From assembly GCA_964187785.1 (NCBI GenBank), contig OZ076409.1, forward strand, positions 53,446,001 through 53,510,000: 64,000 nucleotides of DNA. The letters are read 5' to 3'. The DNA comes from Amphiscolops sp. MND2022. Its lineage: Eukaryota. Below the pieces are notes generated by a model. It was given only the letters and a program-made list of their open reading frames with translations. It did no database searches and was not told the DNA's origin. The translations under genes and the position numbers were made by a program. This document shows, in pieces, positions 30,112 to 64,000 of the stretch (positions within the stretch are counted from its first letter, which is position 1; each line of letters begins with the position of its first letter).

Positions 30112-33100
30112 TGTAACGGCAAGCGCTAAGCGTTTGTGACCTGACAAAAGAGTGACGGAACTGGTATCATGGATATGGTCCAGGACAAACCACCATGACA
30201 TCAGCTCATTTCAGCCTCCTAAGGGTTGTCAGTCCCGAGGACAGGGAACCGTCTTGAAGGTTGCTCTCCTGTCTGTTCCAGTCTGTAACTACTGAGAATA
30301 ACGGGCATTATGCTTTTTCTCTTCACAACCACCGTTTAGACAGCCTTTGAAAACAATGATAAGGATAAACAGTGTAAATTTCCAATTCCAGTGTAAAATT
30401 CCAGGGTGACATACGATTGAGGTCTAAAATGGGAAATATTATCTAAACCGCCAAAACTAACGCTCGAGCTAGCTAAAACCAGTGAAAATACATGAAAACA
30501 GGCACGAAAATGGCAAACCACACAGCTACAAGTTGGGGCGCAGGGACTCCAAGCACCAAACAAGGATAATTAAGCGAAAAGACTCATTTTCCCGCTTCTT
30601 GCTACATTGTGTAGCATAATACTGAAAATCGGTAAAAACCGGGGTTAGCACCTCAAAAAAGTCTTTTTAATGATTTCTCTAGTTCTCTAAGCGCTCAAGC
30701 TTCTTCAAATTCCGTGTTCCTGCTCGGTCGTCTTCACGGGCGACTTGCCTTGTCTTCTGAACTGCTTTTTGACAGGTACTTTGGCCGAAACATGCTCAAT
30801 TTGCCATGTGCGATTCGAACTAATTTTCGGTCGAGTCTTTTTTTATCTCGTTGTACCAAAGGGTCCCGTTTTATCACTCCCCGGTCCTTAGGCATGACTT
30901 CCCTCTCATGCGGAGAAGCTGGAAACGAAAGAAACCAAAAATTGCCGTTACCAAACATTTTAATTCAACTTGAATAAAACTAGAAACAAAAATGTCGCAA
31001 CGTACGTTTACATTTTTTTTTAGAATTTAGAAGATTTTAGAAATAAAGCTGCAAAAACGACAACTCGAAAAAGAACGTTGCGAGGTGTCCAATACCAAAC
31101 GTAGCGATATCCTCTGGGCGTTGTCCAATAGAGTTGTGGAATGAAGGGGTGTTATTATCCTCCACTGGGGCTCTCGGGGCCTTACCTGACTCCCCGGGCC
31201 TTAGTTGTTGAGCATCCTCCTTGATATGATGATAGCAGGACAGAAGATAATGCCCAACACGCAAAATTCAGAAAGATATATTGGGTCTTGGACACGATCT
31301 GGGACAGTTATTCGGAGGCGGCCAGGCCTATGTCCTTTCGGTCGGTGTGAACATGGTAGTAGAAGGGTTTCCATGGCTGACAGTGGTGGACGACCGCGAC
31401 GACGTCCATCATAAAAGGAAAGCAGCGCTTTTTGCGATGAGTGTCACCAGAAGTGCGCGGTGGTCGACCAGGTCTATGTCCAGCTGGTCGAGTTTTAGCT
31501 GAACCACCAGGCAACCAAGTGATGAATATTGGTGGCTCTGCTAAAATAAAATCCTGCATACCATGTTTAGCAGAACGTGGCCCTATAGATTTTTTCAACA
31601 AATCCGGCAGCAACTTCGAAATTGATAATGGGGACTATGTTCTCGGGAAGTGAGTGTTGCAAACTGACTCCATTGGTGTTGCCCTGGAGCAACCCATAGT
31701 CAGCGGTTTGATAAAAGAGTGACGTATCAGCAGTAACCATGGTTAGAGTGTCCAAAATTGTTTCCTTTATAGGCGATGTCAGTGGTTCTACTTGGGCGTC
31801 GTTTGGAATATTGATAGTAGCACTTTCGAAGTGTACTGCTGCACTTATCGACTTCAATTGCGCTAGCGCTCAAGGTAGCAATTGCTCTCTGCGTAGATCG
31901 CTTTGTGTCAACAAGACTGATATCTCATCCATCTGCTGCTCTAGGGTCTCCAGCTTTTGATTCTGTGCCTGATAAGTCTGAATACTGGTTTCAAAGAGAG
32001 AAGACACTCTAGACAACGTTACTGAACTAGGACTGCAAGCCTTTTGATCCTCTCTGGCTCGATAACGGGCGAGTTACCTGGCATCGAGTCTAAAAAGTCA
32101 GATACAACATTGACACTGTTACCCAAAGGCCAGTCTTCCACATTCAGATCCTCTAATTTCGTTGACCAGTCATGTTCATCAACCATTTGGTTTTCAATTT
32201 CTGCTTTCAAAACTGGTTCAATAATTAATTGAGCTGCCTTGACACCCTCACCCCTTGAAAAAGGAGCTGAGGCGGTCTTAGAACTTCGTCAAATTCATTT
32301 CAGCTTCAGGTAGGTTCAAACTGCTTCACTAGAATTTTTTTGTACCCAAAATTAGTCTCACAGTCAAGATGAGTTCTAGTGGTCACAACGTGCTGAAAGT
32401 TGCTCCATTTATTCCACCCTATGCGTCGGGCTGTAAAATTGTGCGCTCGAGCACAATGCTACTGTAGTGTTGGACAATTCACACAAACAAACTGGTCAAA
32501 CTTTTGTCGTTAGGAGGTGACTCCTCTCAAAATTTCGTAACATTGGGTAAACCGGATCTCTCATGGTCGTTTCTGGATATTCAAAACCCTGTTTGGGCGC
32601 ACAACGTAACGCCTAGAGGTGTTCTTTTCAAAAAGAGTTCAATCCGAAGTGCGTCGGAGATTGAGACTTTATCAGAATCAAACTCCAAAGTACCAGTGGA
32701 GTTAAAAATTATGACAACAGACGGCAATTTTTGCGACCTGTAGGGTTTGCCTGGTTTGCACCCAGGAAGGCCTACCAGGTCCCTTCGGTTAAAAAATACG
32801 AGACTTTGGTCTCTGTCTTCCGTACAACGAAAGTTTTAAGGTTTTATGTTTTTGTTTTTCTGACGGTGTTTCAGGAGTTTGGCCCAAATGCGTGTCTGAG
32901 TACAGTCAAATTCAGTTCTATCTACCATACCGGGCAAAAAACTACGCAACACGTTTTGTCAGTCACTCAGTCTTCAATACAGGCCTCATGAAGCTGATAA
33001 ATAACTCCAGCTACAAGCTAGACGCCGTTTCACCGATTTTTTGAATCTTCAAACATTTTGGAAAAACACTCAAGTTGCACCTAAGAACACTGGAAACGTA

Positions 33101-36100
33101 AAATTGTGCTCACAACTAGCCACGCGATTCCACGTGTAGCCACATACACTGCAAAAGGCACCAGTTGGAGTTGAGACTATTGAATGAAATCCAGATACGG
33201 TACAAGAGTTCCGTATCACCGTGTCTCAACTGACACGATTTTTCACATGCAGTCAAAAACTCTCGTCCACAGAACTGAGCTCTCAAAGTCACTTTTCCAA
33301 CAACGGTGCACCACAAGACACTGAAAACAATAGTGCAAACCAATATAGTCCCAACTTTGCGCCAATAAGGTGCGCCGATAATTCCCAAAAATGGTCGATT
33401 CGTTACAATACACAGGATATCAAGACAGTAAGTAACAAAATGCTATTTGTCAGCAAAGCAGCACACTCGAGACTGGCCACAATTCGCACGTACAGCAACG
33501 AATTCACGAACAGCCGTTCACACGAGGGGTTTTCCACAAGTTTCAAACACGTAAAGCTGGGTTTTCCCGCTTTCCGAGTTTTCGTCTGGGTGAAAGCTGA
33601 AGTCAGAATCACGATATGCACGTCTCGAAAGGGTCGAAATTACTTCTAGCTCGTAGCGAGCTTTGATTTACTCAAGCAGTTGGTATTCCCACAAGCTCAG
33701 AAAATGAGTTTGGTTCAGAGCTACAAGTTCTATTAGACAAGCACGAGGCGTTCACAACAAATTATGAAAAAAAAACATTTTCTCGAAAAGTACAAAAAAA
33801 AACAAAAGTGGCTCGTAGTCATCACTGAAAAATCGGATCCGGCACAAAATTGGCCCAAGGATCTTGCTTTTACGTAGGTACACGGAACTGAGCACCTGTT
33901 GGGGCTCTGAATCCTGTACATTGTTTCACATTGATACAGACGTGTGGAACACCTATGTATCAGTAGGAGCCAAATTGCACACTCATCATACAAATTTCAA
34001 GCTCCGGTATGAGTTAGCGGTCTGATTGTTTCGCTAACAGTGCGCCAACTAGCACAAGATACGTCAGTTGGCTGCAATTTGTCCTCACTTATCGGCTAAG
34101 GTGTTAAGGCACTTCCAAATGTTTGCCATTTCGCACCTCTTTTTGTGCAGTACGTTTTTGACAATTTTTCGACAAACTTTGCATCGATCGGCACGAATCT
34201 TGGTAGGCCTTGCCAGTGAGCACTCACAATGCTGTTTCAACGGTCCTATGGAAGCCCCAGAGTTTTCCTAGGATTCCGACTGTAATTTGTTTACAGATAC
34301 GTATATTTACAGACACTATCTTGGCAAAAGCAGTCTTTTTTGACACTTTTTTCACAAATTGGCTGAAAGGGTCGACACTACAATTGTTACGGAGGGCAAA
34401 ATAGGCTCAACGTGTTGCATCACTGGTCACAGCTCACAGCACTGCCGCAAGCCCTCGATTAGCCGTGCCTGTTATGTATAAGGCACTGTCGGTCTTACAG
34501 TTTTAGTTTTTTTGGCTCTTTTAGCACTGGCTATTTTCTGATGTGAAAAGGTCAGAGAGCTTTTCTCAACTTTGGTTAGCGCTAGGCTCATCAAATTTTT
34601 GGCACTGATGTTTATTTTAATGATGAATACGAAAATGCAACCACTTTTTAGTTAGGGTTTGGGAATCAATGACCCAATCCTAACTATAAGACAGTCCGGT
34701 TTTGTGGAAATTTGATCAAATTCAGAGCAAATTTCCATATTTCTCAAATTTCTCAGCACTGATGGGATTTTTTACATGCAGTTTCTACATCAAGTTGTAA
34801 TGATGCACTCTGGCATTCCTGAATCTGGCTAAAAATCAAGGTTTTTCGACCTGTTATCCCTACGATACGTTACAAACGCTTCTAAATCCTATCTTTGGTA
34901 CTATGGAGTCTGTCCCAAACTAATAGCAGCATGGGAGAAGTAATTACATCACAATCCAGCACTCTCCTTGTACCTTTTCATGGTGGTTTTCTGCTAAATT
35001 CCAAAAAAATTGTGTTTTTTCATACCAAATCCGTCTCAAAAAGGACTTCGAAAAAGCCAAAAAGGACGTATTGCTAGCGAGAGAGAAACCGTTTGGACCA
35101 TAGGCAACGTCCGCTCATGTTCTACCTTTCAATCAAATCCCATCTGTTTATGACGTCTGTAGCAGAAATGGGGAAAAGAAAGTCGGGAACACTCGATTCA
35201 GCTCATCTATCGGTAGGATGGAGTATGGCGCAACCATCAACTGAATACCTCGTACATGGCCAAAAACGCTCAAAAAAGCTGCAAAACACCTGTTACGACA
35301 TGTGTAATGGCTTTCTAGTGATTCGCTAAGCCATTACAAAGGTACCCGATGATTGGAACGTGCAATTTTAGACCTCACCTGTCAACAAAGAACTTACTAC
35401 AGGTACTTGGAAAAATCCCCCGAAATACAGAAAAAATACCAGCAAACAGTATCATATCATCTAAGAAAAAGAAAAACTCTGGGTAAACATCTCCTGTCAG
35501 AGCCAAATCGTTTTTGGCGTCAAACACCAGAGGGCGGGAAACTTTAAAACGTTGAATTAGCTTCCCAAGACGATCCCTCTGTGGTCGCCAAAAAATGAGG
35601 TTCTATGTAACGGCAAGTGCTAAGCGTTTGTGACGTGACATTAGAGTTGAGGAACTGGTACCATGTATATGGTCCGGGACAAACCACCATGACATCAGCT
35701 CATTTTAGCCTCCTAAGGTTTGCCGGTCTCGAACCACTTTAAAGGATGCTCTTCGGTCAATCCAGTCTGTAACTGCTGAGAATAACGGGCATTATGCTTT
35801 TTCTCTTCACAACCACCGTTTACACAGCCTTTAGAAATAAAGATAAGGATAAACAATTTAAATTTCCAATTCCAGGGTGACATGGGAATAAGGTCTAAAA
35901 AGGGGAATAGTATCTAAACTGCCAAAACTAGCGCTCGAGGTAGCTAAAACCAGCGAAAATACATGAAAACAGGCACGAATATCGCAAACCACACAGCTAC
36001 AAGCTGGGGGGGCAGGGACTCCAAGCACCAAACAAGGATAATTAAGCGAAAAGACTCATTTTCCCGCTTCTTGCTACATTGGGTAGCATAATTCTGAAAA

Positions 36101-36346
36101 TCGGTAAAAACCGGGATTAGCACCTCAAAAAGAGTCCTTTTTATGACTTGTCAGTTCTCTAAGCGCTCAGACTTCTTCACACTCCGTGTTCCCGCTCGGT
36201 CGTCTTCGCGGGCGTCTTGACTCGTCTTCTGAACTGCTTTTTGACAAGTACTTTGGTCAAATCATGCTCAATTTGCCACGTCAGATTTGAACGAATTTTT
36301 GGTCGATTTTTTTTGAAATCTCGTTGTACCACAGGGTCCCGTTACA
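30112..36346 (-). mobile_element. Non-autonomous LTR element of the 3-bp-TSD (Troyka-like) group
   Basis: Diverged LTRs 30112-30873 and 35606-36346 (TGTAACG..CGTTACA); TSD GAA (30109-30111, 36347-36349); PBS TGGCGACCACAGAGGGATC (tRNA-Arg-like) 15 nt from the LTR; no RT or integrase recognised; decayed unknown ORF at ~31040-32250. Confidence 0.88.
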
Positions 36347-36910
36347 GAAGTTCTACGTTTGCCCTAAGTTGCTTTTAAAACGGTATACAGAGAGGAAGTT
36401 TAGGAAATATAACTACATGCGTTTTGCAATTAATGCATACCACTAATCATGATAGCAAAACCAGTTTCCATTTAAAAGTTACGTATCCGGGAATAAAAAA
36501 TTGAGAGCCAGGTTGTTTTTAAAACGCCTAGAGACTATGCTTTCCTTTCTACCGAGAAGATTTAGAACTGGTAACGAGGTTAAAGGTTACCATTCTTATA
36601 CCTTCTAAACCTGAGCATCAAGATTTAACGGAGGTACCAGATACTATAATTTTCGGTTGCTCTTTTAATCTCTTATTCATGTATTCATGGTCATTGTGTG
36701 TGTTTTGCCAGCGCTTTCTGAACGATATATATTCTACGTGCAATGTTTACAGCTCTCAAATCGAGCCAGCACTGAAAAATATAAGAACGCACGCGCAGTA
36801 AAATCGGACCGCGTACCAAGAAAATGGTGATATATATTTTTGAACAAAAAAAACATATTTTGATTTGTAGTTTCGTCGAAAATTGTTATTTTTGTATTTG
36901 AATGTTGACA

Positions 36911-39899: not shown

Positions 39900-41093
39900 G
39901 ACCAGATCGATATCAATTGGAGCATGATTCAAAATATTGAAAGATGTCAATTGAAAGATTTTAGTATTGATTAATGTAATTAATAACGTGCTAGGAAAAA
40001 AAGAATTGAAGTTATGACCGAATCACTCTGCTTTGAGGAATAATTATCTTCGCTAAACTCACACCAAATTGCTAATCTTGGTATTAAGTAGCAGGAGCTT
40101 TTCCTTCTGTCCTCTCATTTCACTCAAAACTATTTTTTTAGTCCAAATCAGTAGGTCGGTATTTCTGTCGCATTGCATTCCTAGATATTTTTGGGCTATT
40201 ATTAGTGAAATAAGACTTCAGTGCGGACCAAATCCGCTTTTCTCCAATTTCCGAATCATTAAAAGCCTTTTATTTAGCAAAGCTACCTCAGCTCACTCAG
40301 AAGTATTTTACACATTTCTCTGGTATATGATAAGTTTACATTCCTCAGCCTATTCCTCAGAAATAAAAATTTCAAAATTTTGATTAGATTTTGAATGTTG
40401 GTCGTTTCGCAAATCAAACTGAGTTCCTACTAGCGCATAGCTGCTCACGGTTCATCTGAAGTTACATTACGGAGAAAGTTTAAAACTCGACATTTCTTGA
40501 AGATTTTGGCACATCTAAAATATGGGTTCAACGTTTATCGAGAGGTTTACAGCAATTGGTGGGTGCATGCAACGTTCAAATCACATTAAACAGCGCCCAC
40601 AGAATAAGAACCACGCCAAATCAGTTGCTTGCCATAGTCGAAATAGCTCCAGCCCTCAGGGTTCGAACCTCCTATCTGCGGGGCGGATACGCTACAAACT
40701 GTGCCAGTGTGACTAAAATATCCTCATACTAAATGAACTAATAATGAAGTGGAGATTTGGCAGACGTTGAGAAAACACGCTACACAGATGGTGGTTTTCC
40801 TCCCTGTAGACTAAACATTGAAACATTGTGGGGGCGGAAAATGATAAAGCTCTCAAGAAGCTCAAGAAAAAAAGTAACTCGCAAAACAAACCTAATTACT
40901 TTTACAATTACTTTGCTACCACTCCCAACGCCTAATAAATTGGATGTTTTTGGAGAAAGCAATGTGGCAGTGCCAACTATTCTTTTCAGACTACATCAAC
41001 ATTGACTGGGACTGTGCGGAATTCCAAAATTATTGAACTAGTTTTCTGAAGCGATTGTATTTTCCGCATTTATATGATGATTGCATAATGGTA

Positions 41094-44000
41094 TGTAACG
41101 TCAGGCAAGGGACGTTGCAGAAGTTTTTGAAAATTTCGATCAAAAATTCGAAAAGTGCGGTATCAAACAAGCACATTCAAGATGGCTGACCCGGCAAGTA
41201 CGAAAACCGTAGAGGAAGCAAAAAAAGGCAAAAGCAGACCCACCCCCGACCCAAGAACGTGAATGTCCTAGATGTCATCACCCAGAAGGCGAGAGAATAA
41301 GAATTGTGCCATCTGACAGCAAAAAGACAGGGTTTCGGCAGAAAAATGCCAAATGAGACCATTGTGCCCTGAAGATGAGGAATGATGCCAGAGGCCAGAC
41401 TGACGACCAACCCTGAACTGTAATGTTATTGGGGCTTATCCCCGTGTTTTGTCACCGTTTACAGAGTATTTGGATGATGTTTGATCTACTAGATCTTCAT
41501 TTTATTCCTTATTCCCAAAAAATAATGTATTTCAGTTAAATAACTTTTTGGACCTCGGAGGTATGTAGGAGTCGCGTGAACACGCTAGAAACCTTAGGAC
41601 TCGTTTTTACAGGCTTGTCGGGCGTGTCCGGATTTTGAGAGTGCCGGCGCGTTGCCTCGGAGCTCTAACTAGAGGAGCCTCCTTTGACGAAAGAAAAGGC
41701 TCCCTAGGAGACTATTTTGGGAACAAAAACGGGTTTTTAGGGATGTAGTAAGACAACGGTCTCCTGTTTAAGCACCCTAGGCTATTTCCCTCTTCCTAGA
41801 TGTGCGCCGCCAGCCGGACGTTACATCTTGAATAGTTTTTATGGCGACCACAGAGGGATCTTCTTCTTTTTCACGTCCAACTAGGAGCAACTCCTGCTTT
41901 CCGGCCCCGGAGGGTCCAGATCTAGGAAGACTTACGGGAAAGTCCTAGATTATTTTTATTGCCTCTTTTGAGCCCACTAGGCTATCTTCTAGCTGAATTC
42001 TTGCGTTTCTTTGTATTTCCGAGGTCTGGAATGAGAAATGACTGATTTTCGGCAAAGTACCGTTTTGACACCGTTTATCGAGAAAATTACCCACTGGGTA
42101 TTCCGATTGTTTTTGAAAAATTATAGCGAGTTAGCTATAACACCTGATAAAGCTCGATTTTCAACTTGGTTAGTCTCAAAAGCCAAAATTTTTCAGAAGA
42201 GGGTACGGCCAATGGGAATACGATAAAAGCGTTCCAATAGACCTGTTAGGTCAGGAACAGGAAAAATTGTTCGGCTAAAGTGTTGAAACATTGAAAAATT
42301 TAGCGATTTTTGTTGAAAAAACATCAACTTTGACATAAAAGACCAAAATTGGTGAGCGCGAAGCCTCGGGCATTTGTTCCCAAGCTCTTAGATTAGCCCA
42401 AAAACATTTTTCCCGAGCTTGGTAGTATGAAGCACTACTGCCAAGACATTTTGTAGCATCCCCCAATGAAAATTGAAACTCAAACTTTTGATTTTCTTTG
42501 ATATGCATAGACCGGCGAAAAGGACCCCATAGACCTGAGAGTTATAACATTAAAAATAACCATTGAAACAACACCAGTCAATTGAATAAAGTTATTACAT
42601 CTTATTATGTTGTGTTTAGAACTATCCCGAACATCTGGGAACCGGGAAATAAAAAGTTCCTAGGGAGAATACGTATTTTTGACATTGTTCCCAGAGTGTA
42701 AAAGGTGTAACTTGAAAACATTTTGAGAGACCTTTTTTGGAACCTGCAAAGTTTTGCTCGCCTATTTTTTGTTAGTATAAAGTTTACCGTTGCTAACGCA
42801 GAAAACCGCGAGTAATTTCGAACAGTGGTTGCAGAAAAATAGTCAAAAATGTGTTTTTTTCCCGACGTTTTGGGAATTCGGCAACCACGTTTTTTTGACA
42901 TGTCGAAATCTCTCCTAGTAGGAAAAGCCAAAAACGGATTGCACCATCGTGTAGAACGCAAACGGTTACGCTAGTAGCGTGATTTTGATGGCGCTACTGT
43001 CAATACTCGTGGAAAAACCTTAGCCGCAGTTTTGCTCAGAAAGTGCACTAAATTGCCGAAAAAACGGAATTTTAGTTGAGCCCAGTGCGATATCCCCAAA
43101 GTATCCCAGCACATAATTTCGCATATTGTCGAGGACATGGTACCAAATCACGACAATTTGTGCAGTTTGAGCAGCCAGTGGCCAGCCAAAGCCGAGAAAT
43201 TGACATTTTTGTGTATTTTGACTCAAAAAAGTGGTACCTCAGGTACATCAAGGTTTTGTCACACCGAATCGCCAGGTGTTGATCCAGGCACCTTGCCGCC
43301 GTATCTTTCTGTTACATGGGCAAAATTTACGCTCGCATACAAAACCTCAGGTAGCTAGGACGCCTAGAAGACGAGTTTGACCAACTTTTGTGAATTTCAC
43401 GACAGAGTCAATTTTTCAGTGAACATTGTTAAGTGAACGTAACACTCACAGAGTCGTTTATGGCGCAATTGGAGGTTAAATCCCCACAATTCAATTAGTT
43501 TAGTAAACAGTGTGAAACTTTCAGGTCGCTAGCAGCGCTAGAACTGAATTTCATTTTCCCCGGAGGTGCCTGTTCACAAAAAAAAATGCTGCTTTTGCAA
43601 TTTTGTGAGACAAAGCGCACACTTTTTGTCAGTGTACGTGCCAGTGAGGGCCCAAACGACATCGAAAGTATAACAGGCACTCTAAACACGTCCTGTCCTG
43701 TTGGACTGCTTCGATTAATGCTAAACTGACCCTAAGATCGCGGGTCTCTGAGAAAATGGTCTACGAGACATAGATGTGAAAAACCAAAAATCGAAATTCG
43801 CCACCTGAATGCTATCAAAGTCACCTAAGTGCAAGTTATCCGTTGTGAACACGCTTGCTTGGTGCCCTGTGTACCCTGTGGGTGCTGGAGCTTGTTTATA
43901 GGCACTTTTAGATGTTCAGTCTTTGAACGCAGTGCTTCTCAAAACAGAAGAACAAGTACAGTAGTGACAACCATAGTTGAAAAGGAACGCTTTTTCTGAT

Positions 44001-45907
44001 CGTACTACAATCGTAATGCAAGAAAGCCTTTCAAACTCAGTGTCCTTCCTCTTACTCACCCCCAAGGCATATTCCGAGTCTCTGGTCACTTTTACGTTCT
44101 TACTTGTGCTCTCCAGAGACAGGGCAGCATGTGTGACAAACGGACTTTTCAGACAATCTAGCATCTGTAGCTAAGCAGGCTTCTCAAAAAATCAGTGTTC
44201 GTTGCTCGATTCATGCGTGAGGTGTACCTCGGTTCGCGGTACCACAGTTGTGTAAACCATGTCGATTTGAAAACACGGAACAAGAAATTGGCCGGGGAGT
44301 ACCCGTACTCTCCCGAGAGAAATCAACACCAATCATGATGAAACACCTAGAGCTTCGAAGCTCTTAGAACTGCTTCGGCAGCGGAAGTGCTTCTAAAACT
44401 CGAGTGAGTGCTCTGGAACTTGTTTTTTTATGATTATGTCAAAGACTGTTTTATGATATAAAATGCCTGATTTTAAACTTTTATTGGTTCTGCTCTATCA
44501 TCGCTATTGACATTGTCATCCTCTTGAGAAGCAGTTTATTTCCATCTCTTGCGAATACACTGGTGATTGTACTACCTAGACGATACTTTCATCAGAACGT
44601 ACACTGTTGACACAATAGACTGAATGGGTCCTCACGTTTTTTGGTGATATTTTAAATTTTGAGCTCTGTTTCCCCATTGGTGATATTTTTGTGCAGTTTC
44701 TGTTGGCCATGAACCACGACCCTTTTGCAAGACCACAGCTGTTACTTTTTTCGCTTTCCAAGTTGTATCGTGCATTTTGTAAAACCTAACCTATCAGGTG
44801 GGCACCCGGCCAATGCCAAATCTGTTCTGATGAGTGCTTTTTATAGTTATCCAGATTCGGTAACACAAAGTGATAGTAATTTTGGTGCGAAATTAAACGT
44901 TTGAAAGCGTTTTGAGAACAATGCTAAGTGTCTATGTCTAAAGTTGCTAATATTATTCCAGTGCTAGGACTCAGTGGGTGTGGAATCCAAGGAAGCCTGC
45001 TAGGCTTGCAAAAACTCATGTTTTCGGGCAGTAACATGTTTTTGGGCAATGACTTCCATTTAGATTCCTGACGTACCATGTTCCAGCAGTATCACCGGAT
45101 CACTGGATGGTGGCAGCCAAGATGTGAACGTCTTCTCTCGTTTGTCAAGGACGACAAACTACGGCCCGGGCAAGATGTAACGTCAGGCAAGGGGCGTTGC
45201 AGAAGTTTTTGAAAATTTCGATCAGAAATTCGAAATGTGCGGTATCAAACAAGCACATTCAAGATGGCCGACCCGGCAAGTACGAAAACCGCAGAGGAAG
45301 CAAAAAAAGGCAAATGCAGACCCACCCCGACCCAAGAACGTGAATGTCCTAGATGTCATCACGCAGAAGGCGAGAGAATTAGGAATTGTGCCATCTGACA
45401 GCAAAAAGACAGGGTTTCGGCAGAAAAATGCCAAATGAGACCATTGTGCCCCGAAGATGAGGAATGATGCCAGAGGCCAGACTGACGACCAACCCTGAAC
45501 TGTAATGTTATTGGGGCTTATCCCCGTGTTTTGTCACCGTTTACAGAGTATTTGGATGATGTTTGATCTACTAGATCTTCATTTTATTCCTTATTCCCAA
45601 AAAATAATGTATTTCAGTTAAATACCTTTTTGGACCTCGGAGGTATGTAGGAGTCGCGGGAACACGCTAGAAACTTTAGGATTCGTTTTTACAGGCTTGT
45701 CGGGCGTGTCCGGATTTTGAGAGTGCCGGTGCGTTGCCTCGGAGCTCTAACTAGAGGAGCCTCCTCTGACGAAAGAAAAGGCTCCCTAGGAGACCATTTT
45801 GGGAACAAAAACTAGTGTTTAGGGATGTAGTAAGACAACGGTCTCCTGTTCAAGCACCCCAGGCATTTTCCCTCTTCCTAGATGTGCGCCGCTAGCCGGA
45901 CGTTCCA
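41094..45907 (+). mobile_element. Non-coding (LARD-like) LTR element of the 3-bp-TSD group
   Basis: 732-bp LTRs 41094-41825 and 45176-45907 (about 3-4% different by eye); TSD GTA (41091-41093, 45908-45910); PBS TGGCGACCACAGAGGGATC at 41842; interior colinear with 59562-~62200; no retroelement ORF. Confidence 0.93.
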
Positions 45908-46068
45908 GTAACTGGAATTGGCGGAAAAATAGTGAATATGCGCGAAGGCAACAGAAATCTTCGTTGCTTTTTGAAGTTTATTCCAAGTTATTGCAAGTAA
46001 CAACAAATGCCACTGAGACAAAAACGATACCAAAACAAACAAACGTTCCAAAAATTGCGGTCTCGAGT

Positions 46069-46532: not shown

Positions 46533-48148
46533 TCTCGAGTACGTGTATCATTCTTTTATGTGTTAGTTGGAAGACAACACGAAAAGTTGACAATCAAGAC
46601 TTCAAAGCTTTTCTGGTAGCCTAAACAGCTGCTACAATTTAAAAACGCTGCTTAGGCTGCAGTTCGCGACTCTTGGATTGATTTTTGTCACTTTTGATAG
46701 GTTTTCTTTCGAAGTTTTCAGCAAGATCGGACAAGGTCCTTACAAATTTTCATCAAGGTTTTCACACAGAAGCGAGTTAGATTCTTGCCAAGGTTTCAAC
46801 GGATTTTCACACTGGGTCAATTTCATTATGCGTATTATGACTGGTTCAAATAGAGGCGGAACAACTCAACGCGAACATTGCGGAAGCACATGTGAATGTA
46901 CAAAAGGGTCGCTTTTGAGTGGGGTGTTTTTGTAGTGGGCGCCTTTTGTCCAAGTTGCTTTTGTCTGTATACGCTTCACTGAAACCAGTGATACACAGTC
47001 TGATTTGGTAACATCACGCTCACTGAGCGCTGCAAAGGTTTCAAAATTGAACTATTTTACATGGTTTGCGAAAACATGGTTTGCGGGCTTAAGTATACCA
47101 CCAAAACTACTGATTTTCCACGGTAAGTTCGAAAACTTTCACACTTCCTACCTGTTTCAGGGCAATTTTATGCACTTTTTTCCAACAAACCTTCTAAATT
47201 GTTCAATGTATGATACTTAACAAGCCGAGAAATGCGCGTTAAAAGGGGGACCTGTAACGGCTGCTTGCCCTTATCCTGCGCTGAGGCTTGACAAGCTTTA
47301 CGCCGCCCTGATCCGTTGCTTAGTGCTGTGGACCGTCACTAAACAATTCCTGGTTTTCTTGTTTAAAGGACTGTATCTTTTGACTGGTGGGTCCGATGTG
47401 ACCCGCGGAATCTCCTGCAATTCCGCTTTGCACTGAATTGGATCCGATGTGATCCTGCACACACTTCCCTCACTGTATCTTCACGCGCTCCGGCTCTCCA
47501 ACTATGAGAGTAGCTACTTAGTCGCTCTGACTCTAGCGAAAAGTTGTGAAGGTTGAGAAGTAGATTAATTAGTCTCGCGGTCCTGAGACCCAACTTGACT
47601 ATAGCTATTCAGTGGAGAAAATCTCTATCTAATAATGGTATACATATGGTTTACAATTCTACAGTAAATATAAGCAAATATCAGTTGAAATATGTTGTAT
47701 AAATAAATGACATTTAAAGCTTAAAATGAAGTTATTGACTAAGTAAACAAAGAATGTGGTGGTTTTGGCATGTTGGTTAGGTGGGTTAGGAAGTATGTTT
47801 ACACAATGTAAATATCATTAATTTCAACAGAGATGATTTTCCTTCAAGGCCATATGAGAAAATCACATAATAATTAATATATCAAAATTGGGATTTCAGG
47901 GGGTCCGACCTAGGTCACTTTGGGTGTTAATTGCTCGGAACCCAGGGGAGATACGGGGTAGGTTGTTAAGAGTGAAAAGTTAGTGTATCACCACCACTAT
48001 ATGCGTGCCAAGTTTCAAGGTGATTGAATCAGTGGTTTTCCGGGACGGGGGGTGGTGTTTTTTTACATAGGGTCATTTTTGCTTAGACTTGTATTTTTCC
48101 ATCTAAAATCTTGATAAGCTTTCTAAGTGTTTTGAGTTGTAAGTTTCA

Positions 48149-51100
48149 TCAGTCACGTTCGAATTTGAGTTTCTGATCTCGCAATTGACTGGCGCCAACA
48201 TTGCCGGCCCTGTTTTTCTCCTGAAAAACACTTTCGTAGAACATGGGTGCCAGTTTCACTGCTGGTCGTTTCAATTTTCCATCTTCAGTTTTCACCAGCG
48301 CTGATCTCACTCGCCCATCGCTTCCATGGTAGACTTCCAACACTCTACTCATCTTGTAGAGTGCTCTTTTTACATTCTCATCCACTATCCAAACCAAATC
48401 ATTGACTTCTAGTTGTCTAACTTCTTCGTTTTTCCATTTTCCAAAGAATTCAAGTTGCATCATCATTTCTTCCCGTGATACAGCCGGCCCTATGAAAGGC
48501 CCACTTTCCGAACTTGTTGTTGTTTGTGCTTTTGAAGAACCCAATCGCGTTTCCATTAGCGATATTTCATCTGCAAATTCATCTATCACAATCTTTGCAT
48601 ATAGGATGCCAGTTGTATTCAACTGAGCGCTTTCGTTCCTTCCATGTAATCGAATTGAGATAGGTTCAAACTTCCAAGCTCGTTTCTCGAATTGCTTGCT
48701 CTGGCCAGTGCTCAGTTGAGTGTGCACATTAGGGTTAGCTTGTGCCACTGCATCCATTCCTGAGTTTCCATTACCTAACCAGTTGTTACAATTTTCACTG
48801 TCGCTTGGAATAATTTTGTCCAGCAGATTTTCTTTCAGCTCAACATCATGTTTTCTCCAAAATGACATCTTTACGGCTTTTGTTCCATCACTTGCGTTGT
48901 CTTTAGACGGTTGGTTGTGTTCCAACAAATCACTGGAGTGTCTTTGATAAATCGGTTTTCCTCTTGAATCATCATGAAGTTCAATTTGACACTCCTTCAC
49001 GAATCCAACAACTTTTTCCAATTGAGAACACTTTCTTCCCTCTTCCAGTGTTAAGGTGTTGACAGCAAGCTTCACGGCTTGCATTTGAGTTGGTTGCTTT
49101 TCTTTCACATGCTGTCGTACAGAGGCTACATTCATATTCTCTTTCAGCAAATCAAGCTTCACAATAAATTCTTCCAAGGTTCGGATGTTTGATTTAATTG
49201 CAAAACTTTCATGTCCATTATTTTCTTCTGTAAATGAGAAACCCATATTTTTGTCTTGTTTGACTACCACATGGTCACCCACAGCTAGGTGCATATCGTC
49301 TTGCCAAATTTGCTTGATTTCCAAGTGGAGGGATTTAGTACTGACGTCCTGCCAGTTTCTTTCTACAACGAATATGTTTGGTGAGTTCTCAGAATATTCC
49401 TTGGACATTTCGGATACGCTGCAGTGGGAAGTATACGATTCCATGCCCCACCGAGTTTTCATCTGATCCATCAATGGATCCACATCTGCAAAAACCAAAC
49501 TTTCATTGTCGAGCTTCGCAGTTTCTTGGTGAGGCAAGGGTCCACTAAGCATCCACCCCAATTTTGTCAGTACGGCCCAAGGTTTTGACTTTCCACATTT
49601 TCTATACCCAATGGCTCTATGCAAGTGGTAACAATCTTGTCCCAAGATGACTTTTACATCTTTCAGGTTGATGGTAGAATCTTTCAGCACTGACAGGTGT
49701 GGATATTCTTCCTTCAATTTCTTGAGGTTGTACGTTCGATTTCCTGCATTTACGTCGGGATGACTATAGGCCATGATATCTTCTTTGACTTTTCCTTGTT
49801 GATCGCCAATCCTTACCCTTAGTCGTTTGCTACTAATATCTGACGCACCATGAATCCCTGCAACATTCAAATCCACTGGCTGTCCCATCAGATTTAGCGC
49901 TTTCATCAGGCTCTCGTCCACAAAGGACAGGCTTGCTCCAGGGTCGCACAAAGCGAACGTTTTCACAGTTTTGCTCCCACTCCCTATCGATACTGGAATG
50001 ACTGGAAGCACTCCACTGCTTCTCATTGAGGACAGGTTAGAGACCTCATCAATATTTTCAACATTTTGCTTCTGGTCCTCGTTCTTGTAAGGTCGGTGTA
50101 GCAATCGGTGATGAGGTTTTCCGCAACCATTGACGTCGCAGAGTCTACCAGAGCAATTTCTCATCTGATGTGCGTCTGACAAGCATTTGAAGCACAGCTT
50201 CAGTTCTTTCGCCTTTTGTCCTCTTTCTTCGACGTTCATCTTCTTGAATTTCTCACATTTCCATATCGGATGTTTGCCATCTTTCAACGCACACTCTCGC
50301 TGGTATTTTGAGTTGTCACTGGCTGTGTCTGGTGCTGATGTTGCAAACGTAGAACCTTCGGCCTTTTCCTTGTAGCTCGTCTTTGCGCGATCAGCATTTA
50401 GATTCGAATACAATAGCAATTCATCTTGAACATCTGCTATATCATTGAGCCACTCACTGAGCACAGCGAGTCCCGGTTGATACAGGTTCATTTGCTTCAC
50501 ATAAGTGAGCCACTTCGTTTTCATGTCCAGTGTTAACTTCCTTGTGGCACTGCCCAGAACTCCTTCTGAGTTTAGGTCTCCCACGTAGTTGAATTGTGTC
50601 AAAACATTCACGCAACTCGACACTATTCTCGCAAACTTGATCAATGCGGCTCCATCATAAGGTTTCATCGGTGGAAAGGAGTAAATTCTCTTTAGTTGAG
50701 CATTCACAACCATTTGAGGTTTTCCAAAGTTTCGAACTAGAACGTTCCACGCCACATTGTACATCTCCGCGGTGTACCCAAGGCCAGCAATCGCCTCTTT
50801 GGCTTTGCCCGTGACCATTGTTTTCAGGTGATTCATCTTTACACTGTCGTCCATGTTTGCTGCGTGGACGGTTGCTTGAAACAGTTGTGACCACTCTGGC
50901 CACTCCAATGGGTCACCTGAAAACTCTGCCAGTTTCAATTTTGGCAAGCTGGATCTGATGAAATAGTCATCTCTCGCATTTGACACTATGTTATGCCCTT
51001 GACGAGGCAGATACGGCTTCTGCGTGTTCTCAAGCTGTGGCACTTGAAATGCACCACTCGGGATGCCTCCTGACGTAGGCGGTAACCCATTCTGGTCTGC

Positions 51101-52489: not shown

Positions 52490-52524
52490 TTCTTCTCTTC
52501 TTGATTGAACTCAGTTCCCAAAGT

Positions 52525-52740
52525 CACAATAGCCCAAACTCCCAGAGACACAATAGCCCAATCTCCCAGAGACACAGTAGCCGAATCTCCCAGAGACACA
52601 ATAGCCCAATCTCCCAGAGACACAGTAGCCCAATCTCCCAGAGACACAATAGCCCAATCTCCCAGAGACACAGTAGCCCAATCTCCCAGAGACACAATAG
52701 CCCAATCTCCCAGAGACACAGTAGCCCAATCTCCCAGAGA
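52525..52740. repeat. 24-bp tandem array x9 in the BEL 5' UTR
   Basis: CACA(A/G)TAGCCCAATCTCCCAGAGA x9; A/G alternates from unit 2 onward. Confidence 0.97.
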
Positions 52741-53843
52741 CACAAAATCAGCAACTCCAAGTTCCAGACACTTGTTCTTCTTGGGCAATCTTCTCAGTTG
52801 TCCACCAACGAGTCGTCTTCTTCTAGTCCGGGTCGTCCACCAACGAGTTGTCCGGGTCGGCGGACCAACGAGCGTCCGGGTCGGCGGACCAAATGTAACG
52901 GCTGCTTGCCCTTATCCTGCGCTGAGGCTTGACAAGCTTTACGCCGCCCTGATCCGTTGCTTAGTGCTGTGGACCGTCACTAAACAATTCCTGGTTTTCT
53001 TGTTTAAAGGACTGTATCTTTTGACTGGTGGGTCCGATGTGACCCGCGGAATCTCCTGCAATTCCGCTTTGCACTGAATTGGATCCGATGTGATCCTGCA
53101 CACACTTCCCTCACTGTATCTTCACGCGCTCCGGCTCTCCAACTATGAGAGTAGCTACTTAGTCGCTCTGACTCTAGCGAAAAGTTGTGAAGATTGAGAA
53201 GTAGATTAATTAGTCTCGCGGTCCTGAGACCCAACTTGACTATAGCTATTCAGTGGAGAAAATCTCTATCTAATAATGGTATACATATGGTTTACAATTC
53301 TACAGTAAATATAAGCAAATATCAGTTGAAATATGTTGTATAAATAAATGACATTTAAAGCTTAAAATGAAGTTATTGACTAAGTAAACAAAGAATGTGG
53401 TGGTTTTGGCATGTTGGTTAGGTGGGTTAGGAGGTATGTTTACACAATGTAAAAATCATTAATTTCAACAGAGATGAATTTCCTTCAAGGTCATATGAGA
53501 AAATCACATAATAATTAATATATCAAAATTGGGATTTCAGGGGGTTCGACCTAGGTCACTTTGGGTGTTAATTGCTCGGAACCCAGGGGAGATACGGGGT
53601 AGGTTGTTAAGAGTGAAAAGTTAGTGTATCACCACCACTATATGTGTGCCAAGTTTCAAGGTGATTGAATCAGTGGTTTTCCGGGACGGGGGGGTGGTGT
53701 TTTTTTACATAGGGTCATTTTTTGCTTAGACTTGTATTTTTCCATCTAAAATCTTGATAAATTTTCTAAGTGTTTTGAGTTGTAAGTTTCATCAGTCACG
53801 TTCGAATTTGAGTTTCTGATCTCGCAATTGACTGGCGCCAACA

Positions 53844-58823: not shown

Positions 58824-61800
58824 TGTAACGTCCAGCAAAAGTCGTTATATCAATTTTTGAAAATTTCGTTCAAATTCAAAAAGTGTGCGATATCAAATAA
58901 GAGCATTCAAAATGGCTGACCTAGCAGGTCCCCAAAAAAAGGACAAAAAAGAGCCGAAAAAAGCCCGAGAACCCCGAAAAAACCTTGAAATCCCAGAGGA
59001 CAGTGCCAGAGACCCCAGAAGAACTGAGAACTGCCACAAAAACGCGGTTTTGTGCCATCTATCCCAGAAAATGACCCAGAAGAAAGAAGTATCTTTTCGA
59101 AGGTTGCCCAAAGAACCCTGAAGACTGGATACAAACCCCGAATGTGATAAATTCAGTTTATTTAGATGTTTTTGATGTTGTTTAGCAGATTTGCGATGAT
59201 AGTGGATCTACTAGATCCCTATTTTGGTGGATTTAGAACTTATTCCCCCAATAAAATGTGTTTCAGCTAGACCCTGTTTTTGGACCTCGGAGGTATGTAG
59301 GAACACGCAGGAACATTAGGAATTGTTTTTACAGGCTTGTGGGACGTGTCCGGACTTGGAGTGTGCCGGCACGTCGCCACGGAGCTCTAATATGAGGAGT
59401 CTCCACGGCGTTTTGGAAAAGTCCCTACTGAGACCATTTTGGGACTAAAAACTGATGTTTAGGTTGTAGTAAGGCACTGGTCTCTTGTTCAAGCAACCTG
59501 GGCATTGTCCCAGTTCTAGAATGTAGCTGTTAGCTTGACGTTACATCTAGGATAGTTTTTATGGCGCCCCACAAGGGACCTTTTCCATCTTTTCGCCATA
59601 ATTAGGAGTTTTTCCTGCTTTCCGGCCCTGTTAGGTCCGGACCTAGGAGATTTGCTGGTGAGTCCTAGATTGTTTTTATTGCCTTATTCTAGCCCTGTGG
59701 GCCTTGTACTAGTGTTTTTCCTGCGTTTCCTGCGTATTTCCGAGGTCTGGAACCGAAAATCGACGATTTCAGACGGTGTACCCCTTGTATTTTGAGAATA
59801 CCTATTGAAAAAGTGAATCCGGCCTATCCGGAACTGGTTTTAAAGGGTTTTGTAGCTCTATTTCAGTAAATTGGCAATGTATGGGGACCAGGAGGACGGT
59901 TCGTGAAGGCCCCAGCTAGCTGAGTGACAGACGTCAGGTACTTCACGTCATAGCCTCTACCTCCCTCCCTGCTGCCGATTCTACGACGATAGCTGGGTTA
60001 TTTCGTTCCCCTTGTATTTAGCAGCCCAAACAGCATTTTCCCAGGCCTATTCCCACATAAACTAACTGAGAAAAATACCCAGCGGGTGTTCGGACCGGTT
60101 TTTAAAAAAAATTTGAGTGCGAAAACCTTGAAAATAACACTCTATATAGCTCAAATATCGATTTTACAGTTTTAAAAAGTCAAAATTTTGTAGAACTGTG
60201 TACGGCCAGTGGGAATACGATAAAAACGTTCCATCAGACCTGGTAGGTCAGGAACAGAAAAATTTGTTTGGCTAAATTACTGAAACATCAAAAAATTTAG
60301 CGATTTTTATTGAGAAAACATCAAATTTGGCCAAAAATACCAAATTTGGTGAGGGCGAAGCCTTGGGCGCTTGTTCCCAAGCTTTTAGACCGCCCCAAAA
60401 ACGTTGTTCCCGAGCTTGGTGGTACGAGACATTACTGCCAAGACAATTTTTAGCAGCCCCCAATATAAATTAAAACTTTAACCCCTGATTTTCTTTTGTT
60501 ATACATAGACCTGAGTAGAGGACCCCATAGACCTGAGAGTTATAACATCAAAAGTAATAATTGAAAGAACCCCAGTCCCCTAAATAAAGTAGTTACACCT
60601 TCCTACTGTACTATTAAAATCATCCCGAACCTCTGGGAACCGAAGAATAAAAAGTTCCTAGGGAAAATACGTGTTTTTCATAAGTGTTCCCAGAGTGTCA
60701 AAGGTGTAACTTAAAGTCAATTTTGAGAGACCTTATTTGGAACCTGCCAGGTTTCGCTTGCCTATTTTCTATTAATATAGAGCATAACGTTGCCAGCGCA
60801 GAAAACCGCGAGTGATTCCAACCAGTAGTTGTCGAGATATAGCCAAAAACGTGTTATTTTTGCGACATTATCGGAACACTGGAGTAGTGTCCCCAAGACA
60901 GGTCGAAATCTCTCCTAGCAGGAGTAACCCAAAACGGATTGCACCATCGTGTAGACCGCAAAAAGTTACATTAGTGGTGTAAATTTCGTAGCGCTACCAT
61001 TACTAGTGATTGAGAAATCTTAGCCGCAGTTTTGCTCGAAAATCGTATGAAAATGTCGAAAAAACCGAATTTTAGTTGAGCATAGTGCAATACCTTGCAG
61101 GTATCCCAGCACTAAAATTCTTGCATTTTCGTATATACGGCGCTAGATCCCGACGATTTGTGCATTTTGAGCAGCTTGCTACTGTCCAACTTGGAGAAAT
61201 TGACAATTTTGTGAATTTTGACCCCTGAAAGTGACATATAGGGTACATCATAGTTTTGTCGACTCGGATTGCGGAATATTGACCTGGGCACCCTGCTAAC
61301 TTATTTTTCTGTTACGTGGGCATAATTCACGCCCGCATACAAAATTTCAGGTAGCTAGGAAGCCTAGAAGGCGAGTTTGACAGACTTGTGTGAATTTCAC
61401 AACATTGTAAAATTTTGCAATAACATTGGTGAGCGACCCTGAGTCACGAGGAAACAAATTTGGCGCAATCGGCGGTTAGTTTCCCACGATTTAGCCACTG
61501 TAGTATACCGTGTTAAATTTTCAGGTCGCTACTAGCCCTAGAAGTGATTTCCACCATCCCCAGGCGTGCACTTTGGTGAAAAAATTGCCGATTTTGAGGA
61601 ATTTTGCGAAAATTCGCATAATTTTCGTAAGTGTAGTTGCGAGTGAGGGCTCAAAAGACCCTAATTCTACACCAGGCACCCATAGCACGTCCTGCCGAGG
61701 CAATCAGTATAGGGCTAGCTCAACCCTAAGATCTTGGGTTCGTGGAAAAATTGTCTACGAGACTTAGAAGTGAAAAACCACAGAATCGTGTTTTCTCTAC

Positions 61801-64000
61801 CAACAGCCACCAGAGTCACCTAAGTGCGAACTGATAGTTATTGCCGCGCACACTTCGACTGAGAGGCAGCGTGTGAGAGCCAGAACGCATTTAAGAGTTT
61901 CCTAGGAGACTAAGACTTTGGACGCGCTGCGTCTCGCAAAAGAACATCAAGTACAGTAGCATCTGAAAGTGTGAAGAACTGTGTTTCCATTGATTGTGCT
62001 ACGATCAGATTAGTACAACTCTCTTGTTGGCTAGTGTCCTAGCACCTACTCACCCTCAAGGTCTATTCCCTGAGTTCCCTTTTTGTAGTAACCCTACTTG
62101 TGCTCTCCTCATAAAGGGCAGTGCGAGTGACATAGAGTGCGCTCACAGAATAAAGTGCGGAGATTTCTTGAATAAATCTCCATAAAGCTCTGTTAGCGTG
62201 CCAAAATCTTTCTGTTCATTCCAACCGCATAGCCTGTGGCTGGATAAAGCGTAGTTTAGTGTGAGTAACCTCTAATAGTACTTCAAAAAAAAAAACAAAA
62301 AAAAAACTTAAAAGACTCATCTTTAACTTTTCGTAGGATAACTATCTCCAGTTAGTGGGGTAGCAAACCTTTCTGTTCTGATTAGTGGTGACTAGCACCA
62401 GTGCATGTAATCTGAAGATTGTAGTTTGCAGGCCAACTTCATTCTACGTAGAACCTAGTAGGCAATTGCGAGCTGCAAGCTCAAGAACGTAGTGGTCCCA
62501 TAGTTTAGTTTAAACCATAGTGAGGAAGCACATTAAAAACTTCCTATTTTTATTTGTCTTGCGCTTGACTTTGCACAAAGAAGGATAGGGTGAGTAATGA
62601 AAAAAGCCAAAGCCCTGTTCAAAAGCTGGGTTACCAGAGGAAACAGTAGTCAGAGCAGTCCATCGAGCATGAAATCAGGCGAGATTGAGTATCTGAAGTC
62701 TTTGAATGAGTCGAACAGGCAGTCTAGTGGCTTCCACGCTACGAATCCATTTGCAAGCGATGTGGAGGAGTTATCTAGGCTTAGTGCACGTGCTGAGATA
62801 GCAGCGGATGACATGATTGCAAACATGTTTTTATACGACGTCATGTCGGATAATGTGTCCATCGCTGATCAAAACTCGCAAATGGCATACTTCAGCCAAC
62901 TAAACCACTCTCGGGCATCTTCCGATAGCGCTAACTTTGTAAATGGCACTGCCATGAACTGTGGTAACGTCTGGCCTCCCATGAACAACTCTGCGATTGA
63001 TTGGGGAGATTGGCCAAATTCGAATGGAGAACAAGCTAAAAGCTCGGACATCAGTAAATGGGTAGAGAACATGAATGCAGGCACGGCCTTCGGAGAGATT
63101 ACACCACAAATGAGTCTGGATGTGGACCCGCTGGGTTCCGGAGTTCCTGTGTTTGCTGCTAGTAGAAACGCCGTTGCTAACAAGACGGAAGGGTACATCA
63201 ATCAGGACAAAACGGAAACCTCAATCACATCAGTCAAGAGTTTAACTGAAAAGCTCATATCGGAAATGACTGCGATAATGGCGCAAAGAGATCAACAAGC
63301 CGATGAACGACTGACGCTCATTTCCGAAACTATGCATCGCAGAGACTTAGATGTCGACAAGCGCATGGTGGACCTCATGACTACAGTTCAAGAGTTGACC
63401 CTAGGGGTAAAAGCTGTAGTGGCGACGATACCAAGTCGTCCTTCACCTGTGCCGGTGGCACTAAATCCTGCGAACGCACCATCTGATAATGCATCTTCAA
63501 TTCAGCAACCCACCAATAGAGAAATAGTTCAGCGCCAGAGCAGGACGAAGCTCGACCAAAGAAACTTGAATCCAGAGACAGTAGAAGAGGCTGCAAAAGG
63601 CAATACACCGAACACAATACATGGGCAAATGTTAGCCGAAGCGATAACAACCGCGATGTCCAAAGGTTTGGAACCATTGCTAGCAGCAAAAGAAGCCAAA
63701 AATACACCAACCAAATACCGCGGTACGCGCGACGGGATAATAGATGGTTGGCTAATGCTCATGAAACGTTATCTGGAAAAAGCCCACTCAAAGGATACTT
63801 CGCTGGACAGAGCATGGACCATCGTGGAATTCTTAGAGAATGAGGCACAAGACTACATCATGAACAAATCCGAGGCTGAGCGCGACACGGATGAAAAAGT
63901 CTTTGCGCTACTAGCGCGTCGATTTGGAACCGGATCTAGTAAGTTCCAAATACAACAGCAGTTCCGTACACGCAATCAGTCCGACAACGAAGACTATATG
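58824..64000 (+). mobile_element. LTR retrotransposon of the same group as 41094-45907, 5' part (candidate autonomous member)
   Basis: 5' LTR 58824-59545 homologous to 41094-41825; 16-nt spacer; PBS TGGCGCCCCACAAGGGAC at 59562; ~3-kb leader; gag ORF runs off the window. Confidence 0.9.
62597..64000 (+). CDS. gag: Gag (open for 468 codons to the window end; absent from the ORF track because it has no stop)
   Basis: MKKAKALFKSW.. read by hand with no stop; capsid-like block PTKYRGTRDGIIDGWLMLMKRYL..IVEFLENEAQDYI..LLARRFG..QQFRTRNQSDNED. Confidence 0.88.
   Translation, partial: MKKAKALFKSWVTRGNSSQSSPSSMKSGEIEYLKSLNESNRQSSGFHATNPFASDVEELSRLSARAEIAADDMIANMFLYDVMSDNVSIADQNSQMAYFSQLNHSRASSDSANFVNGTAMNCGNVWPPMNNSAIDWGDWPNSNGEQAKSSDISKWVENMNAGTAFGEITPQMSLDVDPLGSGVPVFAASRNAVANKTEGYINQDKTETSITSVKSLTEKLISEMTAIMAQRDQQADERLTLISETMHRRDLDVDKRMVDLMTTVQELTLGVKAVVATIPSRPSPVPVALNPANAPSDNASSIQQPTNREIVQRQSRTKLDQRNLNPETVEEAAKGNTPNTIHGQMLAEAITTAMSKGLEPLLAAKEAKNTPTKYRGTRDGIIDGWLMLMKRYLEKAHSKDTSLDRAWTIVEFLENEAQDYIMNKSEAERDTDEKVFALLARRFGTGSSKFQIQQQFRTRNQSDNEDYM

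Follow-up and report, generated by a model that had tools for sequence, protein, structure and literature searches.

Three related long terminal repeat (LTR) retrotransposons, called here A, B and C, were found in a 64,000-nucleotide stretch of the Amphiscolops sp. MND2022 genome (contig OZ076409.1, positions 53,446,001 to 53,510,000; hereafter the window, whose own numbering is used throughout). In all three, an 18-nt primer-binding site (PBS) of the tRNA type is separated from the terminal CA of the 5′ LTR by a spacer of 15 or 16 nt. This gap is a real, conserved feature, and a variant of the known layout of LTR elements. We propose, with a probability of about 0.6, that a tRNA primes reverse transcription on a folded platform resembling the retroviral U5-IR stem, and that the resulting tail of 15-16 bp is removed by a single integrase cut at CA.

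The window holds six LTR elements (A, B, C, D, E1 and E2). The ends TGTAACG...CGTTACA are common to A (41094-45907, plus strand), B (36346-30112, minus strand) and C (from 58824 to beyond the window, plus strand). Their LTRs start with TGTAAC and end with GTTACA, except for the 3′ copy of A, which ends with GTTCCA; the 5′ LTRs measure 722-741 bp, and 722-764 bp is the range when the 3′ copies are included.

41094..41825, plus: 5′ LTR of A (TGTAACG...CGTTACA), 732 bp, 96.6% identical to its own 3′ LTR
41826..41841, plus: spacer of A, TCTTGAATAGTTTTTA, 16 nt, from the terminal CA to the PBS, whose TGG is at 41842
41842..41859, plus: PBS of A, 18 nt, tRNA-Arg(UCG/UCU)-like, the same as that of B at 18/18 positions
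45176..45907, plus: 3′ LTR of A, which stops at CA with no spacer beyond
45908..45910, plus (partner 41091-41093): 3-bp target duplication of A, GTA
35606..36346, minus: 5′ LTR of B, 741 bp
35591..35605, minus: spacer of B, TAGAACCTCATTTTT, 15 nt
35573..35590, minus: PBS of B, 18 nt, same as that of A
30112..30875, minus: 3′ LTR of B, with a degraded start, 90.1% identical to its own 5′ LTR
30109-30111 (partner 36347-36349): 3-bp target duplication of B, TTC
58824..59545, plus: 5′ LTR of C, 722 bp, the 3′ LTR lying beyond the window
59546..59561, plus: spacer of C, TCTAGGATAGTTTTTA, 16 nt
59562..59579, plus: PBS of C, 18 nt, 6 of which differ from A and B with the tRNA register kept

The LTR end is firmly fixed in A and B, because the 3′ copies terminate at this CA too, and the 3-bp duplication comes next. 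When duplication lengths of 2 to 8 were tried, 3 was the sole fit in both A and B (base frequencies give a joint chance of about 0.018×0.020), and 5 was the length in D, E1 and E2. The LTR pairs are 96.6% and 90.1% identical, so neither insertion is fresh. The displaced PBS and the spacer coordinates given for the three elements in an earlier note on this DNA proved exact (gaps of 16 nt in A, 16 in C and 15 in B), as did the near-zero gaps it reported elsewhere: 0 nt in E1, which has a Gypsy-type pol, 0 in E2, and 2 in D, which has BEL-type Pfam domains. Spacer length is 15-16 nt while the spacers agree at just 4-5 positions (5 for A versus B). Between A and B, the PBS is identical at 18/18 positions and the 30 nt that follow agree at 12; the PBS was the sole clear blastn match between these two elements (E 1e-6).

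Textbook LTR elements have their primer site within 0-3 nt of the LTR, since integrase requires a CA near the free end. In the available parts of PMC13524379, the PBS-minus-LTR offset was at least 12 in 5 of 62 tallied rows (12, 13, 13, 27 and 29, none being 15-16); the tally covers 32 PBS-bearing rows of 44 in supplement file 4 and 30 of 50 'Arg' rows in file 2, and is approximate, the LTR ends there being called by BLAST. A literature search, whose coverage left out most subscription journals, Repbase and GyDB, returned no description of such a spacer, nor of TG...CA elements with a 3-bp duplication. A search for the LTR end plus PBS pattern in metagenome contigs gave 0 matches, and gag and pol queries against viral contigs confirmed no further element. 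The RNase H motif of the clade of C (see below) was found at 15 metagenome loci and 1 locus of a genome collection; no LTR pair and no LTR-PBS junction were present at these 16 loci within the flanks examined.

Predicted pairing of the spacer with U5

Two helices can form between the spacer and the U5 part of the LTR. In the first, P1, the 3′ half of the spacer pairs with a U5 stretch starting at −101 (A), −100 (C) and −101 (B) relative to the LTR end. In the second, P3, the terminal ACA, together with the start of the spacer, pairs, in A, B and C alike, with a U5 ATGT located 22-36 nt upstream. Their U5 strands are as follows.

41725..41730, plus: P1 in A, 5′ LTR copy, 6 bp with the spacer 3′ half
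45807..45814, plus: P1 in A, 3′ LTR copy, from −101, 8 Watson-Crick pairs with spacer +8..+15
59446..59454, plus: P1 in C, from −100, 8 Watson-Crick pairs and 1 G-U
35699..35706, minus: P1 in B, from −101, 8 Watson-Crick pairs with spacer +7..+14
41794..41803, plus: P3 in A, partner of the terminal ACA and the spacer 5′ half, 8/10 positions pairing
59514..59524, plus: P3 in C, 10/10 positions pairing
35638..35645, minus: P3 in B, 7 pairs and one bulged A

P1, which had been overlooked in the earlier note, is the better supported of the two. Three compensatory double changes distinguish B from A and C, and with B held out the helix was matched by 106 of 20,000 spacer shuffles and by 25 of 20,000 U5 shuffles. 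Apart from P1, C has no spacer-LTR helix of at least 7 bp; A (3′ copy) and B each have one more. When U5 strands and spacers were swapped between elements, 8 bp formed within each group and 5 bp with the other group. Covariance models built from C alone recovered A and missed B, with or without structure.

The earlier note had claimed pairing of the LTR end and spacer with U5. The fold-back is indeed present (in C, 59514-59527 with 59540-59552), but it is just modestly above chance, and support for P3 as a predicted U5 hairpin is modest. Its bulged A is common to C and B, which differ by two double changes. The local RNA hairpin was matched by 9 (A), 1 (C) and 18 (B) of 200 dinucleotide shuffles, and by 11, 16 and 76 of 1000 spacer shuffles (A, C and B); the probability of its core was 0.90-0.98 in A and 0.71-0.91 in C. 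On larger scales, the best spacer duplex anywhere in the LTR was matched by 35/300 shuffles in A, 16/300 in C and 216/300 in B, and folds of 150 nt gave z values of 0.10, −2.09 and −1.04 across the three elements. Folded as single-stranded DNA, the U5 end was matched by 8/200 (A), 3/200 (C) and 133/200 (B) shuffles. An Rfam scan of 35000-64000 gave no match. A 10-bp match of the A spacer to U3 (41176 region) was rejected, being within chance and not kept in C.

Primer, proposed integrase cut and alternatives

As a check, the earlier note had proposed matching the PBS to host tRNA-Arg 3′ ends. In A and B, the first 17 nt of the block starting with TGG complement exactly the 3′ terminus of a phage tRNA-Arg(UCU) gene in a viral contig; the block of C corresponds to a different tRNA end. 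In viral contigs these 17 nt had 4 exact matches, 2 of which are tRNA 3′ ends, Arg(UCU) and Trp(CCA), and the block of C had none. C keeps TGG-C-G, GGA at 15-17, and the length of the site; by standard tRNA numbering, these kept positions face CCA, the discriminator base and the T-arm. A and C are 74% identical over the region that includes the site. The six register-keeping changes form the pattern that copying of another tRNA would give. In the part of the PMC13524379 supplement available, the A/B site agrees at 11/12 positions with the animal Arg UCG/UCU end (file 2), and that of C at 10/12 with the Lys-CUU end and at 10/12 with the Arg-CCU end. These comparisons, pointing to tRNA priming as real, suggest a primer switch in C. 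A (41842-41859) and C (59562-59579) are elements about 75% identical that carry different tRNA ends, an apparent switch of primer within one family. ARAGORN found no tRNA in the window. A self-encoded tRNA-like primer was rejected for the parts of the elements inside the window, the best complement on the sense strand of any element having at least 7 mismatches over 18.

Given the observed spacer, 18-nt block, 3′ LTRs ending at CA, 3-bp duplications and pairing potential with compensatory changes, priming, folding and cutting could proceed as follows. A host tRNA would prime reverse transcription at the 18-nt site, at +15/+16. The spacer would belong to the platform on which priming takes place: U5 some 20-40 nt upstream would hold the terminal ACA and the spacer 5′ half (P3), and U5 at −100/−101 the spacer 3′ half (P1); P1 would close the junction 0-1 nt from the expected tRNA 3′ end, as in the avian U5-IR stem. 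Under the standard model, the LTR-spacer-PBS join of the progeny is copied from the minus-strand 5′ end and the tRNA; a tRNA at +16 therefore puts the whole spacer on the end of the linear complementary DNA (cDNA), here its right end. Integrated 3′ LTRs end at CA, so the spacer is gone after integration. One endonucleolytic cut 3′ of CA would free a 15-16-mer; fraying of the last 5-6 bp, which are A/T-rich, would help the cut, and host repair would remove the 5′ flap. The cDNA overhang of about 15 nt put forward in the earlier note agrees with the 15-16 bp past CA that the standard model gives, the cDNA ends themselves being inferred. Its link to the 3-bp duplication was not borne out: nothing was found beyond both involving integrase, and duplication length is set on the target side. 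The 3-bp duplication would rather be a separate property of the same integrase.

The predicted fold of the LTR end on U5, just upstream of a tRNA PBS, is shared with the avian retrovirus U5-IR stem. In retroviruses, however, the PBS is 2-3 nt from CA and the folded part of U5-IR lies inside the LTR, whereas in A, B and C 15-16 nt of the fold lie outside it and are lost from the 3′ end on integration. If this spacer is under structural constraint, it needs a deep-cutting integrase, or else an undescribed trimming step or primer.

Several points weigh against this proposal. Only three junctions are available, two of them independent since A and C are close relatives, and the kinship of B is itself indirect (see below). 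The search window for P1 was picked after A and C had been inspected, the 8-mer of P1 has a second copy in the B LTR at −457, and a structure-bearing covariance model from C alone gave no match to B at E values up to 10. The ensemble probability of P1 was 0.00-0.41 with an RNA start upstream of −110, versus 0.24-0.76 with a start at −104, and P3 is weak in B (18/200 shuffles; probability 0.13-0.90). The cut is the weakest step, and another nuclease could trim the end first. Retroviral integrases commonly trim two or three nucleotides (excerpt of PMC2615609), and with CA further than 2 nt from the end, processing by HIV-1 integrase is poor (excerpts of PMC1905944 and PMC13332604), so that the cut demands an activity without shown precedent in these sources. 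The HIV-1 integrase tetramer is able to cut internally at a palindromic 2-LTR junction (excerpt of PMC1905944).

Self-priming of the Tf1 type, in which three duplexes form a 'pretzel' (excerpts of bioRxiv 2022.12.06.519325 and PMC4600332), stays a rival because P1 matches the central duplex in geometry, and two candidate duplexes flank it, namely P3 and one of U5 with PBS nt 11-18 (−11.9, −9.4 and −9.6 kcal/mol), which overlaps the tRNA site. RNA would start near −101, and its first 8-9 nt would pair with the spacer 3′ half through P1 and be cleaved as primer; the tRNA site would serve as a second or helper site for priming, or be one given up recently, and the extension past CA would be 6-7 bp, not 15-16. 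P1 stands at an equal distance from the LTR end in A, B and C, with covariation, and an A-run preceded by a pyrimidine is present in all three. P1 is likeliest with the start at −104, which fits self-priming better. An intact 18-nt tRNA block in 3/3 elements, and the register-keeping switch in C, are however not expected of a self-primer; self-priming clades are without tRNA sites (PMC6317226). The PBS of Tf1 directly adjoins the LTR (excerpt of PMC11042837), so nothing is left there, versus 6-7 nt here. No TATA-like or AATAAA motif was seen at −130 to −70, and in A and C the candidate promoter and poly(A) motifs are found around −285 to −320 and not around −100. Compared with Tf1/sushi elements (Schizosaccharomyces Tf1, Tf2 and Tj1), A, B and C are alike in that an upstream part of the LTR can pair with the sequence following it, with two further possible duplexes; they are unlike in carrying a full tRNA site and in a pairing that begins 7-9 nt past CA, and no chromodomain is listed for three relatives of C in which integrase follows RNase H (P0063, P0082 and P0111). 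We consider self-priming rather unlikely.

We also find it unlikely, slightly more so, that the tRNA primes at +16 and that the tail is shortened before integrase acts, by a plus-strand stop at the T-run or fold-back or by a host or reverse transcriptase-linked nuclease, leaving integrase to trim its usual few bases. Known integrases favour a subterminal CA, and Tf1 cDNA integrates even though its ends often retain long single-stranded copies of the primer (excerpt of PMC11042837). The U5 end folds as single-stranded DNA in A and C (8/200 and 3/200 shuffles), and ends of 5 nt would suit the inverted repeat of A, which reaches 5 nt beyond TG/CA. Against this, no signal for a fixed stop was seen in the sequence, the DNA fold-back of B is no better than shuffles (133/200), and B is missing the 5-nt extension. 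That the gap is an accident, through an old insertion carried passively or a misplaced LTR end, with pairings due to chance in A/T-rich sequence, seems very unlikely. It would agree with the whole-LTR duplex tests, not significant in A (35/300) and B (216/300), with the 150-nt folds (z 0.10, −2.09 and −1.04), with the second P1 8-mer of B at −457, and with the 5/62 rows of the published table, as far as available, having offsets of at least 12, where LTR ends are BLAST-called. Here, however, the LTR ends are set by the 3′ copies and the duplications, the length stays at 15-16 nt despite spacers agreeing at 4-5 positions, P1 keeps its position and covaries, and a passive insertion must still go through the cDNA end every cycle.

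On a more speculative reading, the elements might represent an abundant Gypsy lineage standing between tRNA- and self-priming. The RNA 5′ end would pair with the spacer against the bound tRNA 3′ end, both would stack, and either might start synthesis; integrase would cut the donor 6-16 bp inside the end, transposase-like, with a 3-bp stagger. We regard this combination as improbable.

An LTR block is kept in A (41508-41612) and C (59239-59334), with CTTATTCCC (in B too, at −287), AATAAT/AATAAA and TCAGTT/TCAGCT. The same block contains a splice-donor-like and then a splice-acceptor-like motif, 35-45 nt apart. Judging from these motifs, it may mark a promoter, a poly(A) site and a small intron.

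Kinship of the elements and further observations

Coding sequence of the family is visible in C:

62594..64000, plus: gag frame of C, open past the window edge, about 3 kb downstream of the PBS

Used as a query, this gag retrieved 18 longer relatives at 70-99% identity among 2630 candidates. In relatives (76-91% to the gag of C; also P0063), gag is followed by protease, reverse transcriptase (RT), RNase H (RH) and integrase, in the order PR-RT-RH-IN. One of them, P0015, has a CX2CX4HX4C knuckle matching Pfam zf-CCHC; the knuckle of C itself lies past the window. At residue 2396, P0063 carries a W-x-G-P-H stretch that may be GPY/F-like. Among solved structures in the PDB, Ty3 RT-RH was the best match (E 5e-76), with RTs of caulimoviruses and retroviruses ranking behind it, and a look-up in a protein atlas returned generic RT clusters only. 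In a 32-row RT-RH tree, built without reference sequences of Osvaldo, 412/mdg1, Mag, CsRn1 and Gmr1, 18 unnamed rows formed a clade of their own (100/100), and the named rows, from fish, pseudoscorpion and algae (34-40% identity), fell outside it. On these sequence comparisons, the relatives of C are a clade of Gypsy gene order, unnamed, set apart only with respect to the rows of this tree; its newness is not claimed.

A and C are tied by 74-78% DNA identity. B is tied to them by its termini, the 3-bp duplication, the PBS, one LTR motif and a weak leader match; no gag or pol remnant was found in A or B, and the kinship of B is inferred for this reason. From their sequence, A and B look non-autonomous. 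The leaders (A 41826-45175; C 59546-62593; B 30876-35605, minus) are very long and non-coding, that of C extending some 3 kb before gag. The leader of C keeps 75% identity to A over 1.67 kb, and a 48-nt match between C and B occurs at nearly equal offset (E 6e-4).

Membership in Troyka, suggested in the earlier note, is ruled out by termini, LTR length and knuckle. In the available part of PMC12440569, Troyka elements have CG...CG ends (CGCCA / TGGCG), LTRs of 100-400 bp, 3-bp duplications, a CX2CX8-10HX4C knuckle, no GPF/Y integrase motif, the order PR-RT-RH-IN and animal hosts, and that part does not mention a PBS. A, B and C end in TG...CA, their LTRs measure 722-764 bp, and the knuckle of the relative is CX2CX4HX4C. 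The likenesses are the 3-bp duplications of A and B, the PR-RT-RH-IN order of the relatives of C, and the animal hosts. TG...CA ends with 3-bp duplications break the rule of thumb that 3-bp duplications indicate Troyka. With Ty3/Gypsy (Metaviridae) the elements share TG...CA ends, PR-RT-RH-IN and a Ty3-type RT in the relatives of C, and an 18-nt tRNA PBS; they differ by the 3-bp duplication (2/2 testable cases, A and B) from the usual 4-6 bp (same excerpt of PMC12440569), which is a usual trait and no formal criterion. Annotation settings expecting 4-6 bp duplications and an adjacent PBS would miss elements of this type. The termini TGTAACG / CGTTACA also fit the rGmr1 motifs TGTNANR / CGTNACA (Table 3 of PMC3601003, where the rGmr1 group is closest to Osvaldo/Ulysses), and LTRs near 700 bp are another likeness. 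In rGmr1, however, integrase precedes RT, whereas it follows RT in the relatives of C, and the PBS of A, B and C stands 15-16 nt off the LTR.

Distant relatives were seen in metagenome contigs (L006, L008, L010, L012, L013 and L017), and are very large: pol, where whole, spans 2150-2725 codons, and a third frame reaches 1340-1655 codons at most. The third frame had no Pfam match in L013 and L008, and a Macro domain (E 7e-5) stands at the end of pol in L013. A 1.9-kb contig in a metagenome-assembled genome of Bacteroidota (L020:1-1947) carries an RT-RH of the clade of C, 53% identical to P0063; it is likely eukaryotic contamination.

The terminal inverted repeat reaching 5 nt outside TG/CA (CAAGA|TG ... 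CA|TCTTG) was confirmed in A; B is without it.

45171..45175, plus: CAAGA ahead of the 3′ LTR of A, complement of spacer bases 1-5 (A only)

In the stretch lying upstream of the 3′ LTR (A 45157-45175; B 30876-30895, minus), that of A is not clean polypurine and holds GGCCCGGG; this makes it uncertain where the plus-strand primer ends and, with it, what the left-end overhang is.

In the BEL-type element D (47253-53843, minus), a 24-nt tandem array (52468-52803) begins at the PBS. Its 1453-codon frame matched DUF1759 and DUF5641 with no RT match, and D is likely an internally deleted copy. A 29-nt tandem array at 24525-24959 is self-complementary (inverted match of 292 nt, 77%). A frame at 55096-55839 (minus) has a neurotransmitter-gated ion-channel transmembrane domain (E 4e-14), which fits an animal host.

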